The notes: generated from the letters alone by a model not told the origin. Positions 17,506-56,612 are shown, counted from the stretch's first letter. The stretch is 64,000 bases of DNA from Patescibacteria group bacterium (GCA_028716725.1 JAQUPG010000002.1:25824-89823), one strand, 5' to 3'. Numbers and translations: made by a program.

Positions 17506-18696
17506 CTAATACCTAGCACTCAACCCATAACACCCAATAACCCCTCCCCCTAAAACCTCATCTTTTCTGTAAAAAACCACGCTTTGCCCGGGGGTAATTG
17601 CCCTTTGCGGCTTTTTAAATTTTACAGAATATCTTCCTCTGTTGTTCTCCGCTTTTAGTTTTTCGATTTTACATTTTACTTGTTTGTGCCTGTACCTAAT
17701 TACCGCCTCGCAAGCCAGGGGCAGTTTGGGTTCTCGCCCGGCTATCCAATTAACATTATCCGCGACTAATTTATCATTACATAAAGCCGGGTCATCGCCA
17801 TCCTTCACCACATACAAAGTATTGGTTTTATAATCGCATTTGGCGACATAGAACGGGCCGATGCCGCCGATTTCCACCCCCCTCCTTTGGCCGATAGTGT
17901 AAAGCGGCAGGCCCTGATGTTCGCCCACTTTTTTACCATCTAAAGTTTTTATCGGACCTGATTTTAATTTAAGGTATCTTTTTAAAAAATCGTTATGGCT
18001 CTTGCCGGGGATAAAACAAATTTCCTGGCTTTCTTTTTTGGAGGCGACCGGCAGTTTAAATTTCCCGGCTATTTTTCTTACTTCTTCTTTTTTATAATCG
18101 CCCAGCGGGAAGAGCAGATGCCCCAATTGCCCTTGCGTTAAAGTCCAAAGAAAATATGACTGATCCTTATTTTTGTCTTTCGCCCGGAAAAGTCTGTACT
18201 GCCTGCCAGTTTTTTTCAAACGCACATAATGGCCGCTGGCGACATAATCAAACCCCAATTGCTTCGCCCGCTCAATCAGCAGGCCCAGTTTAACCAATTT
18301 ATTACAGCGGATACAGGGATTAGGAGTCCCGCCCTTCTTATATTCATTAAGAAAATAGTCAACCACTTCCTTTTTAAAAATATGGCTGAAATTCAAAGTG
18401 TAAAACGGCATATTGATATTGGAGCAAACCCGCCTCGCATCCATTAAGGCTTCAATTGAACAGCATTTATTTTCCGCTTCGCCCGCCTTTTCATCTTTCC
18501 AAAAATGCAAAAAAATTCCCAAAAGGTCACACCCCTGGTCTTTCAATAATTTTGCCGCCACCGAAGAATCCACCCCACCAGACATCGCTACAATTATGCG
18601 CTTTTTTTTATCGCCGCCCGCTTGCCCCGCAGAATCCCGAAGGGATTTGTGTGGGGACATCGCCACGATAATTTTTTTGTTTTCTTCTCCCGACAT
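17506..18696 (-). CDS. mnmA: tRNA-specific 2-thiouridylase MnmA
   Basis: PP-loop IIVAMSGGVDSSVAA, the CIRCN zinc/catalytic region and a C-terminal barrel. Confidence 0.85.
   Translation of the reverse strand: MSGEENKKIIVAMSPHKSLRDSAGQAGGDKKKRIIVAMSGGVDSSVAAKLLKDQGCDLLGIFLHFWKDEKAGEAENKCCSIEALMDARRVCSNINMPFYTLNFSHIFKKEVVDYFLNEYKKGGTPNPCIRCNKLVKLGLLIERAKQLGFDYVASGHYVRLKKTGRQYRLFRAKDKNKDQSYFLWTLTQGQLGHLLFPLGDYKKEEVRKIAGKFKLPVASKKESQEICFIPGKSHNDFLKRYLKLKSGPIKTLDGKKVGEHQGLPLYTIGQRRGVEIGGIGPFYVAKCDYKTNTLYVVKDGDDPALCNDKLVADNVNWIAGREPKLPLACEAVIRYRHKQVKCKIEKLKAENNRGRYSVKFKKPQRAITPGQSVVFYRKDEVLGGGVIGCYGLSARY
18621..18676. repeat. GC-rich hairpin element inserted in frame at the mnmA 5' end, flanked by an imperfect direct repeat
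   Basis: cccgcttgccccgcagaatcccgaagggatttgtgtgggg lies between attatcgtggcgatgtcc and ataattgtagcgatgtct (14/18 identical). The peptide IIVAMS is therefore encoded twice around a PHKSLRDSAGQAGGD linker. Confidence 0.5.
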
Positions 18697-18805
18697 AATT
18701 AAATTATATCTTTAATAATTTCATATTACAATACAAAGGACAGGGCAAAGCCCTGTCCCCGTAATTTTTATTTTATTATTTTATTTTTATATTATTTCAA
18801 TTTTT

Positions 18806-26968: not shown

Positions 26969-27038
26969 CCACTTCGCCTCGCTATTGCTCGGAACTTCCT
27001 GCCTGCCGGCAGGCAGGCAAGGGGCGAGACGAAGCGAT
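26969..27038. repeat. nested GC-rich palindrome containing the 24-mer acttcctgcctgccggcaggcagg
   Basis: cttcgcctcgc ... cctgcctgccggcaggcagg ... gcgagacgaag. The 24-mer recurs exactly at 35819..35842. Confidence 0.6.
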
Positions 27039-28032: not shown

Positions 28033-29199
28033 TTATTTTCTTATTTCATCCATTAACTCCATATAAAATTCCAAATTATTCAGACTCGCCAGTTTTGCTC
28101 CCAATGGCTCCCTTAATTTAAACAAGTGATGCAAATAAGCTTTGGAGTAATTGCGCAGTTCCGGCAGTTTGCTTTCCGAATTAATCGGACTAAAATCTCT
28201 AGCAAATTTAGCATTATTAATATTGACCGTCCGATAAAAATCTTTTGACATTTGCCTGCCCGCCGTAGCCTTGGCGAAGGCGGGGAATTTAGAATTTCTC
28301 TTCCAAAGGAAGAGTTTTCCATGCCTTCCTTCTCTTGTCGGAATTACGCAATCAAAAATATCCCAACCCATTTCTGCTGCCCGGACAATATCTTCCGGCA
28401 GGCCTATGCCCAGGCCAAAACGGATAGAATCTTTCGGGATTAAATCAGCCGTGAATTGCAAGACTTTTCCTAAAAACCTCCCGTCCTTATCAATTGGCCG
28501 GGCGCCGAAACCATAACCGTCAAACCCGATTTTTATCAATCCTTCCGCGCATTTTTTTCTTAAATCCAGTTCGGCTCCGCCCTGGATAACGCTAAAGAGT
28601 AACGGCCTCTCCCCTACTTTCATCTTCCTCCCCTTAACTTGCCTGTCATATTCCGCCCGGCACCTGGCGGCCCAGCTAATTGTGCGCTCTACTGATTTTT
28701 CTAAATCTTTTCGGCTAAATTCATTCGGCGGGCAATCATCCAAACAGACCATCATATCAACTCCTAAATCAAACTGGATTTGGATGGATTTTTCCGGAGT
28801 TAGCTCATGAGAAGAGCCGTCCAAAGGAGATTTAAAAATTACCCCCTTATCGCTTATCTTACCCATAGCCGGCTTCTTATGGACTAAGGAAAAAACCTGA
28901 AAGCCGCCACTGTCAGACAAAATCGGCCCGGACCAATTCATGAACTTATGGATGCCACCTTGCCTCGCCGAAGTACCACGAAGGCGGGTGGTTTTTTTTA
29001 TAATTTTCATCCCCGGCTGCAAATAAAGATGCAACGTGTTAACTACTAGGGCCTTAACCCCCATATTTTTTAGTTCTTCATTATCGGTAAGCTTAACAAA
29101 CCCCCTGGTCGCATCCGGCATAAAAAAAGGAGTCCTAATGCTCCCATGCGGTGTTTTTATTATTTTAGACTTTCCTCTTTTTATCCCCATTTCGTTCAT
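28033..29199 (-). CDS. tgt: queuine tRNA-ribosyltransferase
   Basis: TPHG..TP.FMP.AT N-terminus, the VMVCLDDC region and overall TGT length. Confidence 0.85.
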   Translation of the reverse strand: MNEMGIKRGKSKIIKTPHGSIRTPFFMPDATRGFVKLTDNEELKNMGVKALVVNTLHLYLQPGMKIIKKTTRLRGTSARQGGIHKFMNWSGPILSDSGGFQVFSLVHKKPAMGKISDKGVIFKSPLDGSSHELTPEKSIQIQFDLGVDMMVCLDDCPPNEFSRKDLEKSVERTISWAARCRAEYDRQVKGRKMKVGERPLLFSVIQGGAELDLRKKCAEGLIKIGFDGYGFGARPIDKDGRFLGKVLQFTADLIPKDSIRFGLGIGLPEDIVRAAEMGWDIFDCVIPTREGRHGKLFLWKRNSKFPAFAKATAGRQMSKDFYRTVNINNAKFARDFSPINSESKLPELRNYSKAYLHHLFKLREPLGAKLASLNNLEFYMELMDEIRK

Positions 29200-35721: not shown

Positions 35722-35872
35722 AAGGGGTTCGGGGGCCAAACCCCGCAATACTGGGGGGCAGGCTGAGCTAAGAATTGCTTGCCCGCCGAAGCTTTAGCGG
35801 AGGCGGGAGGCCCCCGAAACTTCCTGCCTGCCGGCAGGCAGGTTGCTTACTTTTGGTTACAAAAGTAAGTCC
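35722..35872. repeat. composite GC-rich structured element (gttcgggggcc ... ggcccccgaaac outer stem, the 24-mer palindrome, and a cttacttttg/caaaagtaag hairpin)
   Basis: Intergenic between parB and the GT4 gene. Shares the 24-mer exactly with 26994..27017. Confidence 0.5.
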
Positions 35873-36777: not shown

Positions 36778-36900
36778 AAATTTAAAAATCAAAATGTAAA
36801 ATTAAGGTATCGCGCTGCGCTCGCCTCGCTGAAGCTTCGGCGAAGCGGGCGCGATGAATTTTTAATTTTAAATTGTCATTTTGATTTTTGATTTTTACAT
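36778..36900. repeat. GC-rich hairpin (36808..36854, centred on gaagcttc) flanked by AT-rich inverted arms, in the parA-parB spacer
   Basis: atcgcgc...gcgcgat outer stem. The arms share aaaaatcaaaatg. It shares GCCTCGCTGAAG / CGAAGCGGG motifs with other GC elements. Confidence 0.45.
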
Positions 36901-37728: not shown

Positions 37729-37747
37729 AAAAGCAGTTTCAAAAATA

Positions 37748-37857
37748 GGCCCTGGTGGCCCGCCTCCGTCCCGAGCGTCGGGACTTCGGCGAGGCAAGCG
37801 GAACTGGCATGCCTCGCTGAAACCGGGCTTCAGCTCGGCGAGGCCGGTAAACGCGCA
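37748..37857 (+). other. GC-rich structured element whose first 11 nt (gccctggtggc) and an internal gcggaactgg match the 5' end of the downstream tRNA-Leu. Candidate tRNA remnant, leader or small RNA.
   Basis: ~110 nt at ~68% GC in a ~40% GC genome. Internal hairpin cgaggca...tgcctcg and direct repeat tcggcgagg. Lies between the consensus promoter and tRNA-Leu. Confidence 0.4.
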
Positions 37858-39510: not shown

Positions 39511-39546
39511 CCCCTCTCCTGGCTAGGAGAGGGGCAGGGGTGAGGT
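39511..39546. repeat. GC-rich palindromic repeat (cccctctcct-ggct-aggagagggg-caggggtgaggt)
   Basis: Third member of the subfamily seen at 4812 and 9737. Confidence 0.55.
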
Positions 39547-49037: not shown

Positions 49038-50483
49038 CTATTTCTTCATTTCTATTTTAATCCGATCCGCTAAATTCGGCACTTTATCTATAAAAGACGG
49101 GAAGAAATTAATTTCATAGCCGGCGATTTCCTTAAAGCCGCTTAAATAATCTTCTAATTGGGCGCGGGTTAAATTAACGATTTTCTGCCGGTCAATGATA
49201 TCGGCCCCGCCTTTTAAGCTCATTTTCCCCTCAAAAGTAGCATTAACCGTTGCCCGGCCCGTTTCTAGGTCAAAATTATTTAAAGTGTAATTTATCTCTT
49301 CGGGCTTAAATTCTATCAATTCCTTATTATCCGGCACTACTTCTTCTAATTTTCCTTTAGCCATTTTTCCGGCTTCGTCGCCGGAGAAAGCGACAATCGT
49401 TACCATCGCCTTCATGCTGACATCGAATTTATCCTTCTCTTCGCCCACCTTACCGTTGACCTCGGTGCTGATGGTATTTTCATCGACGCTGTAAATAACT
49501 TCATTATAACCCTTATAATTTTCCCCTAGTTCGTTTTTCGCTTTTTCCAAAAGGCTTCTTTTTAAATCCTTAATCGCCTGGTCAATGTCCGATTGCTGAA
49601 TATATTTTTTTGCCTGCTGCCCATAAACGAATTTCTCTTTGCTTTCCGCATAAATCTTATCCTGCAACCCGGCCCATAATCCCGGAATGGTGAATTTCGT
49701 CGGGCCGATAGCCATATCCGCGCTCACCTCATCGGCGTATATTTCCACTTCCTGCGACCCGCCTGCCGGCACATTGATTGTGTTTTTTATCCGGAAAAGT
49801 TTATTGTCCGGAGACAGCAATCTCGTTGTCGCCACCAAGGGCTGATTCTTATTGTAATTATTTATAACCGTAACCTTTCCGGTCACTTCTTCGCCGATCT
49901 TTTCCGACCCGCTGGCGGAATAGGTATTTTTTTCCTCAATGCTGGTTTGTTCCACGATGCCGGTTAACGATTTCCCCGGTACGGCCGGCTCGCTCCCGTT
50001 TCCATAGATATCTATAGCCAAACTGTCGCTTAATCTTTCCTGCGCCGGTATTAAAACAATATTTAACTTTACAAAAGAAAAATAAAAAATAACACCTAGC
50101 AAAACAACGGTTAAAACAATAAAACTCACGGCTATTTTTCGGTATAAATTTATTTTTGGGGAATTCATATTTTTTTTCGCCTCTTTTCCGGCCGGTCCGC
50201 CCAAACTCGGCGAAGCTGAGACAGCCTCGCTCGCCTTACTTTGCCTGCCTCGCTCTGCGGGCAAGGCTGGCGGCCGAAGCGGGCTTGGTTCTAATTTTTT
50301 AAAATTTTTATTCTGCTTTTTAAAGTTATAGCCAGTATTAACTGCAGAGGAAGAAGACGGCCGGAGAACTTTACCTATTTTGGGGAGAGGCTTAGCCTCT
50401 TTTTCAATAATTACAGGAACGACCTCTTTTTTGGCTTTATCTGGGAGAGAAGATTTCCCTGTTTTTTTCTTCGCTCTTGGCAT
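49038..50483 (-). CDS. hypothetical membrane-anchored protein (Lys/Pro-rich N-terminus, one TM, large extracytoplasmic domain)
   Basis: 481 aa. The N-terminal region includes a GC-rich in-frame segment. Confidence 0.5.
   Translation of the reverse strand: MPRAKKKTGKSSLPDKAKKEVVPVIIEKEAKPLPKIGKVLRPSSSSAVNTGYNFKKQNKNFKKLEPSPLRPPALPAERGRQSKASEAVSASPSLGGPAGKEAKKNMNSPKINLYRKIAVSFIVLTVVLLGVIFYFSFVKLNIVLIPAQERLSDSLAIDIYGNGSEPAVPGKSLTGIVEQTSIEEKNTYSASGSEKIGEEVTGKVTVINNYNKNQPLVATTRLLSPDNKLFRIKNTINVPAGGSQEVEIYADEVSADMAIGPTKFTIPGLWAGLQDKIYAESKEKFVYGQQAKKYIQQSDIDQAIKDLKRSLLEKAKNELGENYKGYNEVIYSVDENTISTEVNGKVGEEKDKFDVSMKAMVTIVAFSGDEAGKMAKGKLEEVVPDNKELIEFKPEEINYTLNNFDLETGRATVNATFEGKMSLKGGADIIDRQKIVNLTRAQLEDYLSGFKEIAGYEINFFPSFIDKVPNLADRIKIEMKK
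50180..50295. repeat. GC-rich repeat-family element in frame within the 481-aa gene
   Basis: ~115 nt at ~68% GC encoding LRPPALPAERGRQSKASEAVSASPSLGGPAGKEA. Shares CTCGGCGAAG, GCCTCGCT and GCCGAAGCGGGC motifs with the intergenic elements at 36808 and 37748. Confidence 0.5.
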
Positions 50484-55205: not shown

Positions 55206-56612
55206 TCAATTCTTCATCTCTTCCAGCTTCACCTTAACTTCCTTGTTTTCACCCTTATGCAAAATCTTTAAAGTAATTTCATCTCCGACTTTAAATTTGC
55301 CGATCGCTGAAGACAGAGGATTATTGGCGTCAATTTTTTTGCCGTTTACTTCCAGAATAATATCATTTTCCGCTAACCCGGCTTTATCCGCTGGTGAACC
55401 AGGAATAACGGCCAAATCAGTCCGGTTTTCTCCCCGGACAATCAGGGCGCCGTAATCAACGCTTAATTTATTAGCATCAGCTATAGATTTATCAACCAAA
55501 ACATATCTTACCCCCAGCCAAGGCCTGACAATCCGGCCGTTTTTCTTAACGCTTTCAATCGTGTCTTTTAAATCATTAATCGGAATAGCAAAGCCGATAT
55601 TCTGGGCGTTCTGCGCGATGGCGGTATTTATGCCAATTACCTGGCCGGCCAGATTAAGCAACGGACCGCCGGAATTGCCGGAATTAATAGAGGCATCAGT
55701 CTGGATAACGCCGCTTAATTGTTCGCTTCCTAACCCGATCCCGCCGGCGGTAATTGAGCGGGACAAGCCGGAAATTACCCCGGTCGAAACCGTATTCCTG
55801 AATTCGCCCAAAGCATTGCCGATAGCGATGACAGTCTGCCCGACTTTTAAATTGCTTGAATCTCCTAATTCCACCGTCGGAAATTTTTCTCCCTCGCCCG
55901 CCGAAGCTTTGGCGGAGGCGGGCTCAATCTTTAAGACGGCTAAATCGGTGGCCGGATCCCGGGCCAAAACTTTCGCTTCATGTTTTGTTTCATCATTCAT
56001 TAAAACCGTATATTCCGCTTCTTCATCAAGAACCACGTGCTTGTTGGTGACTATATAACCGTCGGAAGAAACAATAAAGCCGGTGCCGCCCCCTATTTCC
56101 TGTTTCGTTGTGCCGTTCTGTTTTTGCTTCGGCGCAGGCGGATTGGCATTGGGGCCGAACAATTCATCAAAATTATCGCCGAAAAATTGGCGCAAAAAAT
56201 CGTCCCCAAAAGAATTATTATAATACTGTTCAACCGTGGGCAAATCCTTGCTGATAATAATGCTGACTACGGCCGGTGAAACTTTTTCCGCAGCCGTAAT
56301 AACGCCCGACTCCTCCTCTACTTTTACGATTTTCTCCCCCTGGTTTGCGCTTCCCTCTAACCCAGAACCAGCCGGCTGGCCGGTAGCAACCCCCTTTAAC
56401 CAGCTAAATAAATTAAATTGGGCGGCAGACGATACCGTGCCGGCCCAAAAACCCATTGCTCCCCCAAAAACAGAACTAACTATCATGGAAGAAACAATAA
56501 TGGTTATAAAAGTCTTCTTAAAATTGTTCTCCATATTAATTTTAGGATAAGGATGGGGAAAGATATCCTTTTTATATAATATAATACGAATTAAACCGCT
56601 TTCTGCTTTCAC
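55206..56612 (-). CDS. htrA: HtrA/DegP-family serine protease with PDZ domain
   Basis: Trypsin-like triad context and GNSGGPLLN. C-terminal PDZ. N-terminal TM anchor. Confidence 0.85.
   Translation of the reverse strand: MKAESGLIRIILYKKDIFPHPYPKINMENNFKKTFITIIVSSMIVSSVFGGAMGFWAGTVSSAAQFNLFSWLKGVATGQPAGSGLEGSANQGEKIVKVEEESGVITAAEKVSPAVVSIIISKDLPTVEQYYNNSFGDDFLRQFFGDNFDELFGPNANPPAPKQKQNGTTKQEIGGGTGFIVSSDGYIVTNKHVVLDEEAEYTVLMNDETKHEAKVLARDPATDLAVLKIEPASAKASAGEGEKFPTVELGDSSNLKVGQTVIAIGNALGEFRNTVSTGVISGLSRSITAGGIGLGSEQLSGVIQTDASINSGNSGGPLLNLAGQVIGINTAIAQNAQNIGFAIPINDLKDTIESVKKNGRIVRPWLGVRYVLVDKSIADANKLSVDYGALIVRGENRTDLAVIPGSPADKAGLAENDIILEVNGKKIDANNPLSSAIGKFKVGDEITLKILHKGENKEVKVKLEEMKN

Follow-up and report, generated by a model that had tools for sequence, protein, structure and literature searches.

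A 64,000-nt stretch of a Patescibacteria metagenome-assembled genome (MAG; GCA_028716725.1 JAQUPG010000002.1:25824-89823; hereafter "the window") contains an mnmA gene whose 5' end carries a 75-nt in-frame module (codons 9-33), in which a GC-rich hairpin is accompanied by a second copy of the codons for beta-1, the strand leading into the PP-loop. We favor, with moderate confidence, the explanation that a palindromic element was inserted here, probably by template switching, and was retained as a cis-acting stem-loop in an mnmA mRNA that is probably leaderless. A preliminary description of the window had called the module a mobile element with a target-site duplication. This label is too simple, and the module is better described as a translated palindromic insertion that is gene-specific and single-copy and whose structure is apparently selected.

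On the minus strand, the MnmA N-terminus reads MSGEENKK-IIVAMS-PHKSLRDSAGQAGGD-KKKR-IIVAMS-GGVDSS, in frame and stop-free. The gene and the parts of the module are as follows (P numbers denote MnmA homologues and L numbers loci).

17506..18696, minus strand: mnmA coding sequence (tRNA 2-thiouridine(34) synthase), 396 amino acids including the module, from the open reading frame (ORF) list, Pfam domains, and the NCBI name MnmA.
18703..18731, minus strand: promoter-like TTGTAA-17 nt-TATAAT (promoter scan, 10/12 matches), its -10 box ending 6 nt before the ATG at 18696.
18673..18681, minus strand: AAC AAA AAA (N-K-K), the A-run at the edge of the duplicated segment's upstream copy, read from the sequence, with a matching A-run at 18598..18609.
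18655..18672, minus strand: copy 1 of the beta-1 codons (IIVAMS), ATT ATC GTG GCG ATG TCC, its last 9 nt inside the stem-loop; predicted by AlphaFold not to be the structural beta-1.
18610..18654, minus strand: 45 nt of insert-specific codons, encoding PHKSLRDSAGQAGGD, with a homologous peptide in P0002-6, P0010, P0013, P0017, P0022, P0069, and L017-19.
18619..18663, minus strand: conserved stem-loop core, 45 nt with 17 base pairs, GCG ATG TCC CCA CAC AAA TCC CTT CGG GAT TCT GCG GGG CAA GCG, located with covariance model R1.
18633..18647, minus strand: inner stem-loop AATCCC-TTC-GGGATT, its middle loop base T, G, or A by lineage (sequence comparison).
18598..18609, minus strand: AAA AAA AAG CGC (KKKR), 12 nt of A-run and linker ahead of copy 2, read from the sequence; the equivalent in relatives is xKKx.
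18580..18597, minus strand: copy 2 of the beta-1 codons (IIVAMS), ATA ATT GTA GCG ATG TCT, the predicted functional beta-1 (AlphaFold strand; HUP domain start at residue 32).
18565..18582, minus strand: intact PP-loop motif SGGVDS, in invariant columns of a 92-sequence alignment.

The division of the module into a GC-rich stem-loop of ~45 nt, a short 3' arm that is likewise GC-rich, and a second A-run with beta-1 codons (KK-IIVAMS) is well supported. Much of the preliminary description of this architecture stands: the duplicated IIVAMS codons are identical at 14 of 18 nt, the sequence between them folds into a GC-rich hairpin, and the frame is kept. All four differences are at synonymous third positions, the stem-loop is nested, and there is no stop. 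The spacer had been given as 45 nt, which is correct for the GC-rich insert-specific nucleotides, but the two copies actually lie 57 nt apart (45 nt plus the 12 nt of KKKR). Because 14/18 direct repeats at 30-120 nt spacing are common by chance (~41 expected in the window and 125 observed), the significance of the duplication rests on its codon pattern and on its recurrence in at least 13 other mnmA genes.

The insert is 64% GC compared to 41.6% for the window. Covariance model R1, which was built from 13 copies, scores 69.4 bits at the core, where 95% of cells are paired across the 13 sequences. An outer stem, CCCCACA/TGCGGGG, is nested around the inner stem with a single A.C mismatch in the window genome, and the hairpin reaches further, by two short pairings (TG/CA and GC/GC), into copy 1 at its Ala-Met codons. 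Folding energies are -21.7 kcal/mol for the consensus 41-mer (z = -3.7, with 0/200 shuffles as good) and -27.8 kcal/mol for the 65-nt extended version in the window (z = -2.9). Rfam 15 gave no match overlapping 18610..18672, even at E values up to 10.

The same arrangement recurs at the same codon in relatives, although most homologues are without the module. The insert occupies this codon in 11 of the 120 nearest MnmA homologues (P0001-6, P0010, P0013, P0017, P0022, and P0069) and is also carried by three divergent genes of the FMRLG type (L017, L018, and L019), with 54-64% identity to the others. When the stem was searched for with a DNA pattern (AATCCCTNCGGGATTCTGCGGGG) in 185,579 species genomes and in a metagenome collection, the matches numbered 6 in the former (4 in mnmA) and 16 in the latter (12 in mnmA). 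Although this pattern was blind to reading frame, every mnmA match was in frame, and all 12 of the DNA-ascertained cases were stop-free, with inserts of 17-26 codons. The matches outside mnmA were four intergenic sites from one Jorgensenbacteria contig pair (L013/L014, the same as L027/L029) plus two unrelated high-GC contigs. Peptide searches were less informative: a 33-amino-acid phmmer query against 1.84 billion representatives returned one match and a 60-amino-acid word-index search returned six fragments, both queries being too short to inform.

Within a neighbor-joining tree of the protein core, the insert is patchy. It forms one coherent clade (the window and P0002-6) with one insert-free member and otherwise appears as scattered single occurrences. 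The insert-free member (L038), which has the same neighbors and the same promoter, presents a clean empty site, reading AAA AAA GTC ATT GTA GCT ATG TCT and then directly GGA GGC. In one lineage (L010, L025, and L030), two units stand in tandem, a long form followed by a short form, with the long form differing from the short by a 21-nt internal repeat; the first unit has decayed in L025 and L030, where it reads PHKFLRDCLGQ.

We considered whether the repeat might be an artefact of assembly or sequencing, and the contigs of L010 and L025 do look mosaic around their repeat units. These two loci are 100% identical from the PP-loop to the stop codon; in the first repeat unit and upstream of it they diverge, and L025 there agrees with L030. 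The mosaic in this lineage reflects either recombination at the repeat array or chimeric metagenome assembly. A further contig binned as "uncultured Gammaproteobacteria" (L016, CAZCKV010000081.1) bears a Patescibacteria-type mnmA with a two-unit module identical to that of L010 over their overlap and was probably mis-binned. For the module itself, however, an artefact is scarcely credible: the identical window protein is encoded on three contigs that are independent of each other, two from NCBI MAGs and one from a Logan assembly, which indicates that the module is real, and the architecture occurs in more than 12 independent assemblies from NCBI, JGI, ENA, and Logan.

The host enzyme is intact. 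The window protein has the features of a MnmA, namely a PP-loop HUP domain with SGGxDS, a PRC-barrel, and a C-terminal beta-barrel, with PF03054 (tRNA_Me_trans HUP), PF20259 (PRC-barrel), and PF20258 (C-terminal beta-barrel) all above the Pfam cut-off. The HUP domain begins at residue 32, which corresponds to profile position 1. An AlphaFold model built on the 92-sequence alignment is confident overall (mean predicted local distance difference test score [pLDDT] of 88) and places strand beta-1 at residues 33-38, in copy 2, with pLDDT >90, while residues 1-27, including copy 1, fall below a pLDDT of 50. On this modeling, it is well supported that copy 2 is the real beta-1 strand leading into the PP-loop and that translation of copy 1 and the hairpin adds an N-terminal tail of ~30 disordered residues. 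The only canonical in-frame starts that retain beta-1 are upstream of the hairpin. Any functional MnmA thus has to include the insert peptide, which is enough by itself to explain why the frame is never broken.

The tail could nonetheless have been selected as protein, with the pseudo beta-1 and SLRDSAGQAGG serving, for example, as a docking site for a sulfur donor or as an autoinhibitory strand. Copy 1 has kept the amino acids of copy 2 despite synonymous divergence (across 11 lineages, 33 nt of synonymous difference between the flank copies vs. 11 nt in replacement codons), the peptide is largely conserved, and the module is always in frame. Yet the frame would be needed in any case given the position of the usable starts, and AlphaFold predicts no structure for the residues concerned. 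Moreover, selection on a peptide cannot explain conservation at four-fold sites, and the replacements that do occur fall exactly at unpaired bases. We therefore regard a protein-level function as quite improbable.

The pattern of conservation in the stem suggests a retained structure. The variability statistics use only the eight sequences found by protein homology, as three others came from a pattern that fixes part of the stem. Among the eight, 6/34 paired columns vary compared to 7/11 unpaired columns (Fisher p = 0.007), and degenerate third codon positions, counted from the per-column table, vary in 1/9 paired cases compared to 5/5 unpaired cases. Across 11 lineages, pairwise identity is 0.975 at four-fold sites in the stem and 0.36 at the loop site, while four-fold sites in the rest of mnmA show identities of 0.26-0.66 between lineages. 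Conservation drops sharply at the stem ends. The insert peptide is not strictly kept (H/R/K, D/N, S/I, and A/T all occur) while pairing is, with amino acid replacements either sitting at unpaired bases or preserving the pair; a His-to-Arg replacement, for instance, turns A-U into G.U, and this can pair only in the sense RNA. Since paired third positions are frozen in a gene otherwise near saturation, selection appears to act on the stem itself. These comparisons point to purifying selection at the nucleotide level, in situ, on a stem that evolves far more slowly than neutral sites.

This pattern also bears on the idea that the module is a neutral relic, in which a one-off template switch or tandem duplication left a harmless tail whose conservation reflects overlapping coding and chance. 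Several observations would suit such a relic, including a tail predicted to be disordered and outside the Pfam domain, the many close relatives without the module, the lack of covariation, and the evidence for local slippage-type duplications such as the 21-nt internal repeat of the long form. However, a relic would be expected to show the third-position identity of the rest of the gene rather than the ~97% found at paired positions, to drift in pairing as its peptide has drifted, and not to have conservation that ends so abruptly at the stem boundaries. We consider it improbable.

Whether the hairpin behaves as a mobile element was addressed through its copy number and its flanks. The copy-number checks cover the window, related loci, and four MAGs, and all assemblies are incomplete MAGs or contigs. 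Over the 64-kb window, R1 detected this hairpin and no other; related loci totalling 261 kb gave one for each mnmA, and the 23-mer core matched exactly once in each of the four other MAGs. Uniqueness in the genome had been named in the preliminary description as telling against an inserted element, and this result weakens a MITE-like reading of the module (MITE, miniature inverted-repeat transposable element). The flank duplication is 18-27 nt, imperfect, and accompanied by an extra codon, with the copies differing at 3-7/18 nt in every lineage. The third positions of the flanks are essentially saturated, indicating that the duplication is old and that none of the insertions happened recently. 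Genomes of the syntenic clade have codons in common that are specific to copy 1 or to copy 2 (ATT... vs. ATA ATT...), so the duplicated state has been inherited vertically. What survives of the mobile-element claim, then, is that an insertion and a duplication occurred relative to an ordinary gene, as the empty site shows, and that intergenic relatives exist in one Jorgensenbacteria genome. The claim is countered by the single copy wherever this could be checked, by a duplication that is long, imperfect, and old, and by stem conservation beyond neutral expectation, which fits structural selection better than a decaying transposon scar.

A selfish origin could take a more specific form, with a non-autonomous palindrome homing to the site ...GCN ATG TC of mnmA, generating a ~25-nt flank duplication on insertion and keeping its stem for mobility. 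This would account for insert-bearing and insert-free genes adjoining one another in the MnmA tree, for an identical insertion point in genes as divergent as the FMRLG type, for two successive units at one site in L010 and L025, for flank copies that follow the local beta-1 sequence (IIV, VIV, IAV, or VVV), and for the free intergenic Jorgensenbacteria copies, one of which starts with ATGTCC. Against it are the single copy per genome, the flanks that are saturated at synonymous sites in all 11 lineages while the stems remain intact, and the vertical descent in the syntenic clade. No transposase, recombinase, or RAYT (REP-associated tyrosine transposase, where REP denotes repetitive extragenic palindromic sequences) was linked to the module in the loci examined, although no systematic search was made, and we know of no mechanism that yields a 25-nt duplication for a 45-nt insert. 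This form of selfish element thus seems to us rather unlikely.

The favored palindromic insertion could instead have come about by copying. Because the hairpin is also intergenic in one Jorgensenbacteria genome, it belongs to a family of free-standing palindromic elements, and an element of this kind may have been copied into mnmA through a template switch at each of two microhomologies, ATGTC to the left and an A-run to the right. These are the exact boundaries of the duplicated mnmA segment, and a double switch of this sort would both insert the palindrome and duplicate the segment between ATGTC and the A-run. One intergenic Jorgensenbacteria copy (L027) reads ...ATGTCC-hairpin-GGCAAAAA. Later unequal recombination or slippage between the direct repeats could have added or removed units. 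Such gain and loss would account for the patchiness of the insert, for its long and short forms, for arrays of two units, and for the empty site.

As for why the stem-loop was kept, the position of the promoter suggests that the mnmA mRNA is leaderless. The -10 box ends 6 nt before the ATG at 18696, no Shine-Dalgarno sequence is present, and the TATAAT-N6/7-ATG layout is also found in L004, L010, L011, L025, and L038. The stem-loop would then start ~30 nt into the message and act in cis in the sense mRNA. A leaderless mRNA has no 5' untranslated region to host such a structure. Its likeliest role would be tuning early translation or elongation, or shielding the 5' end from RNases (5'-end-dependent decay), and it might also be a binding site for some factor. 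This cis-acting role, which we infer, is the least certain part of our explanation.

Several points weigh against our explanation. The template-switch origin rests on one intergenic copy (L027), and we infer both the leaderless start and the regulatory effect from sequence. There are zero compensatory double-sided changes in 17 pairs across 13 sequences, so that the structure is backed only by the contrast in conservation between paired and unpaired positions. Every third codon position that is paired has a first or second position as its partner, and a joint constraint from peptide and hairpin could therefore freeze the sequence without any regulatory role. Minimum free energy folds lengthen the stem in 9/11 lineages, but in the extended lower part, where copy 1 faces the 3' arm, no lineage-specific covariation was seen: cognate duplexes are no better than non-cognate ones (p = 0.98), and covariation there is not supported. 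Single changes that weaken the stem are present in the window (CCA), L007 (AAT), and L019 (CAG), and several are present in L009. Finally, the many apparent losses in the gene tree would be odd if the structure matters to its host.

A bolder version of the explanation is that the module is a gene-specific structured RNA of leaderless Patescibacteria mnmA frames, selected for control of translation or decay or for factor binding. It would have entered at this one codon on more than one occasion, through template switching or homing, with duplication of the beta-1 codons sparing the enzyme. We put this forward tentatively, as a possibility that is more doubtful than not.

Small palindromic elements translated within genes have been described in Rickettsia and in a few further bacteria and are treated there as selfish passengers. 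These and other in-frame repeats (PMC3184786), together with yeast mitochondrial GC clusters, are functionally and evolutionarily the nearest analogues of the mnmA module. The Rickettsia palindromic elements (RPEs; Ogata et al. 2000, cited in PMC3184786) are likewise hairpins in frame in housekeeping genes, translated, outside the folded core, and variable among lineages, and the mnmA module shares their position at a tolerant site in that its tail, predicted as disordered, falls outside the domain. However, RPEs are 100-150 bp long with dozens of copies per genome in many genes, while the module has a core of ~45 nt, a flank duplication of 18-27 nt, and one copy at one codon in the window, in each related locus, and in each of the four MAGs, as far as incomplete assemblies tell. 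REPs, bacterial interspersed mosaic elements (BIMEs), and small MITEs (PMC3184786) resemble the module as short, GC-rich, imperfect palindromes, as do its intergenic relatives in Jorgensenbacteria. REPs are extragenic and highly repeated, though, whereas the module is intragenic and single-copy, with extragenic copies on the one Jorgensenbacteria contig pair, and it does not fit a REP/RAYT system. MITEs, for their part, have short target-site duplications of 2-10 bp that are initially identical, in contrast to the long and diverged duplication with its extra codon seen here.

In yeast mitochondria, mobile GC clusters are GC-rich hairpins in an AT-rich genome, occurring as optional in-frame inserts in var1 that are polymorphic for presence and absence. 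They number hundreds per genome and have short AT-rich target duplications, whereas the mnmA hairpin is gene-specific. The stem-loops of the ompA and ermC leaders are also 5'-proximal and act in cis on translation or decay, but from within untranslated leaders. If the functional reading is right, the module would resemble them while standing inside the frame of an apparently leaderless mRNA, where it has to be translated. Compensatory substitutions, by which conserved cis-acting RNAs are recognized, were found at 0/17 pairs.

Bypass elements such as that of T4 gene 60 and the "byps" of Magnusiomyces mitochondria are a further comparison, being inserts of ~50 nt between matched codons with a stem-loop at the 5' edge. 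A ribosome could in principle leave the message at the first AMS codons, pass over the hairpin, and resume at the second, and the matched Met (ATG) codons that flank the insert and the stable stem-loop that begins at the putative take-off site have this appearance. Bypass would be incompatible with the presence of the insert peptide (PHKSLRDSAGQAGG / SPHKSLRDSAGQAGG) in the protein. The module has no stop after the take-off site, is open and always in frame, and encodes a conserved peptide, so that nothing requires bypass; its Ser codons are mismatched between the copies (TCC vs. TCT, TCG, or TCA), and the nascent peptide would be just ~13 residues long at take-off. It does not resemble a gene 60-type element, and we view bypass as very improbable.

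Other readings were tried and rejected. Hidden out-of-frame inserts were suspected behind gene calls that begin at MSGGVDSS, as in P0019, P0052, P0104, and ~17 other entries (loci L035-L037), where the MnmA call starts at the Met of AMSGGVDSS and cuts off beta-1. In all three loci checked, these were mis-called starts with ordinary N-termini, the true start being 8-12 codons upstream. A duplication of the first 22 codons, with the upstream PP-loop decayed to a hairpin, had marginal similarity in two lineages (p ~0.02-0.04) and none in three. Mimicry of the anticodon arm of tRNA-Glu, tRNA-Lys, or tRNA-Gln for MnmA autoregulation was rejected on sequence alone, as the loop is UUC here and its middle base is U, G, or A across lineages; no tRNA for Glu, Lys, or Gln lies within the window. 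The second A-run could form a slippery A AAA AAG heptamer or allow transcriptional slippage, but relatives do not conserve it. An intrinsic terminator would need a U-tract, which does not follow the sense stem; a T-run does follow the extended stem in antisense, but nothing suggests antisense transcription. Repeat duplication at spacer integration, as in CRISPR arrays, sits poorly with a "spacer" that is the same sequence in all lineages.

Within mnmA, relatives have a second hot spot just after FLHFWK[DE]E, where CCCCC...GGGGG palindromes are translated as PPxPLxKGG in one or two units. These palindromes are absent from the window mnmA and were located as follows.

L004, 10205-10240: second mnmA hot spot.
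L007, 8026-8058: second mnmA hot spot.
L010, 571-600: second mnmA hot spot.
L011, 740-805: second mnmA hot spot.
L012, 351-383: second mnmA hot spot.
L038: the same site.

A Falkowbacteria contig (L006, 7100-7162) has a different type of GC hairpin upstream of mnmA (GATTGCTTCGTCGCCTCG...CTCCTCGCAATGAC), a motif that we take to be one translated into spurious peptides in many bacterial annotations.

Most of the other GC-rich hairpins of the window are intergenic, and a few are in-frame fusions with genes. Families of them cluster in intergenic gaps (26995-27036, 35730-35839, 36811-36853, 37744-37801, and 39511-39540) in sequence that is otherwise 41% GC, and they look REP-like, with some terminator-like. 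The hairpin CCCGCCTCCGCCAAAGCTTCGGCGGGCGAGGG at 55889-55926 (ORF 55206..56612, minus strand) is translated in frame as PASAKASAGEG in an HtrA-like trypsin/PDZ protease and has a near-identical intergenic twin at 35781-35808. A related hairpin at 28253-28287 (ORF 28033..29199, minus strand) is translated as PAFAKATAGRQ in queuine tRNA-ribosyltransferase (TGT), with no obvious flank duplication. A GC-rich module at 50242-50289 (ORF 49038..50483, minus strand) forms part of a low-complexity N-terminal region of an unannotated 481-amino-acid protein; its plus strand reads CTGCGGGCAAGGCTGGCGGC, similar to the mnmA insert's 3' half (CTGCGGGGCAAGCGGGCGGC) but oriented the other way with respect to the gene.

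Full-text literature searches gave no description of the mnmA module or of in-frame GC hairpins in Patescibacteria. Compared to known translated palindromes, the module is distinctive in having one copy per genome, at a constant codon beside the ATP-binding loop of one tRNA-modification enzyme, with a fixed stem amid synonymous sites that have turned over. The translated GC-rich hairpins in several genes of the window and its relatives are also a warning for annotation, as they inflate Patescibacteria protein lengths and create spurious "conserved" motifs. If the stem is selfish, it would be a homing mini-element with an unexplained 25-nt flank duplication. If it is functional, it would show how a 5' regulatory or stabilizing structure can be housed in frame where mRNAs are leaderless, with duplicated codons keeping the protein intact. 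Should the module further prove to be a gene-specific structured RNA, it would be a translated riboregulator of a new class and would show a tiny palindrome colonizing an essential motif in a new way.

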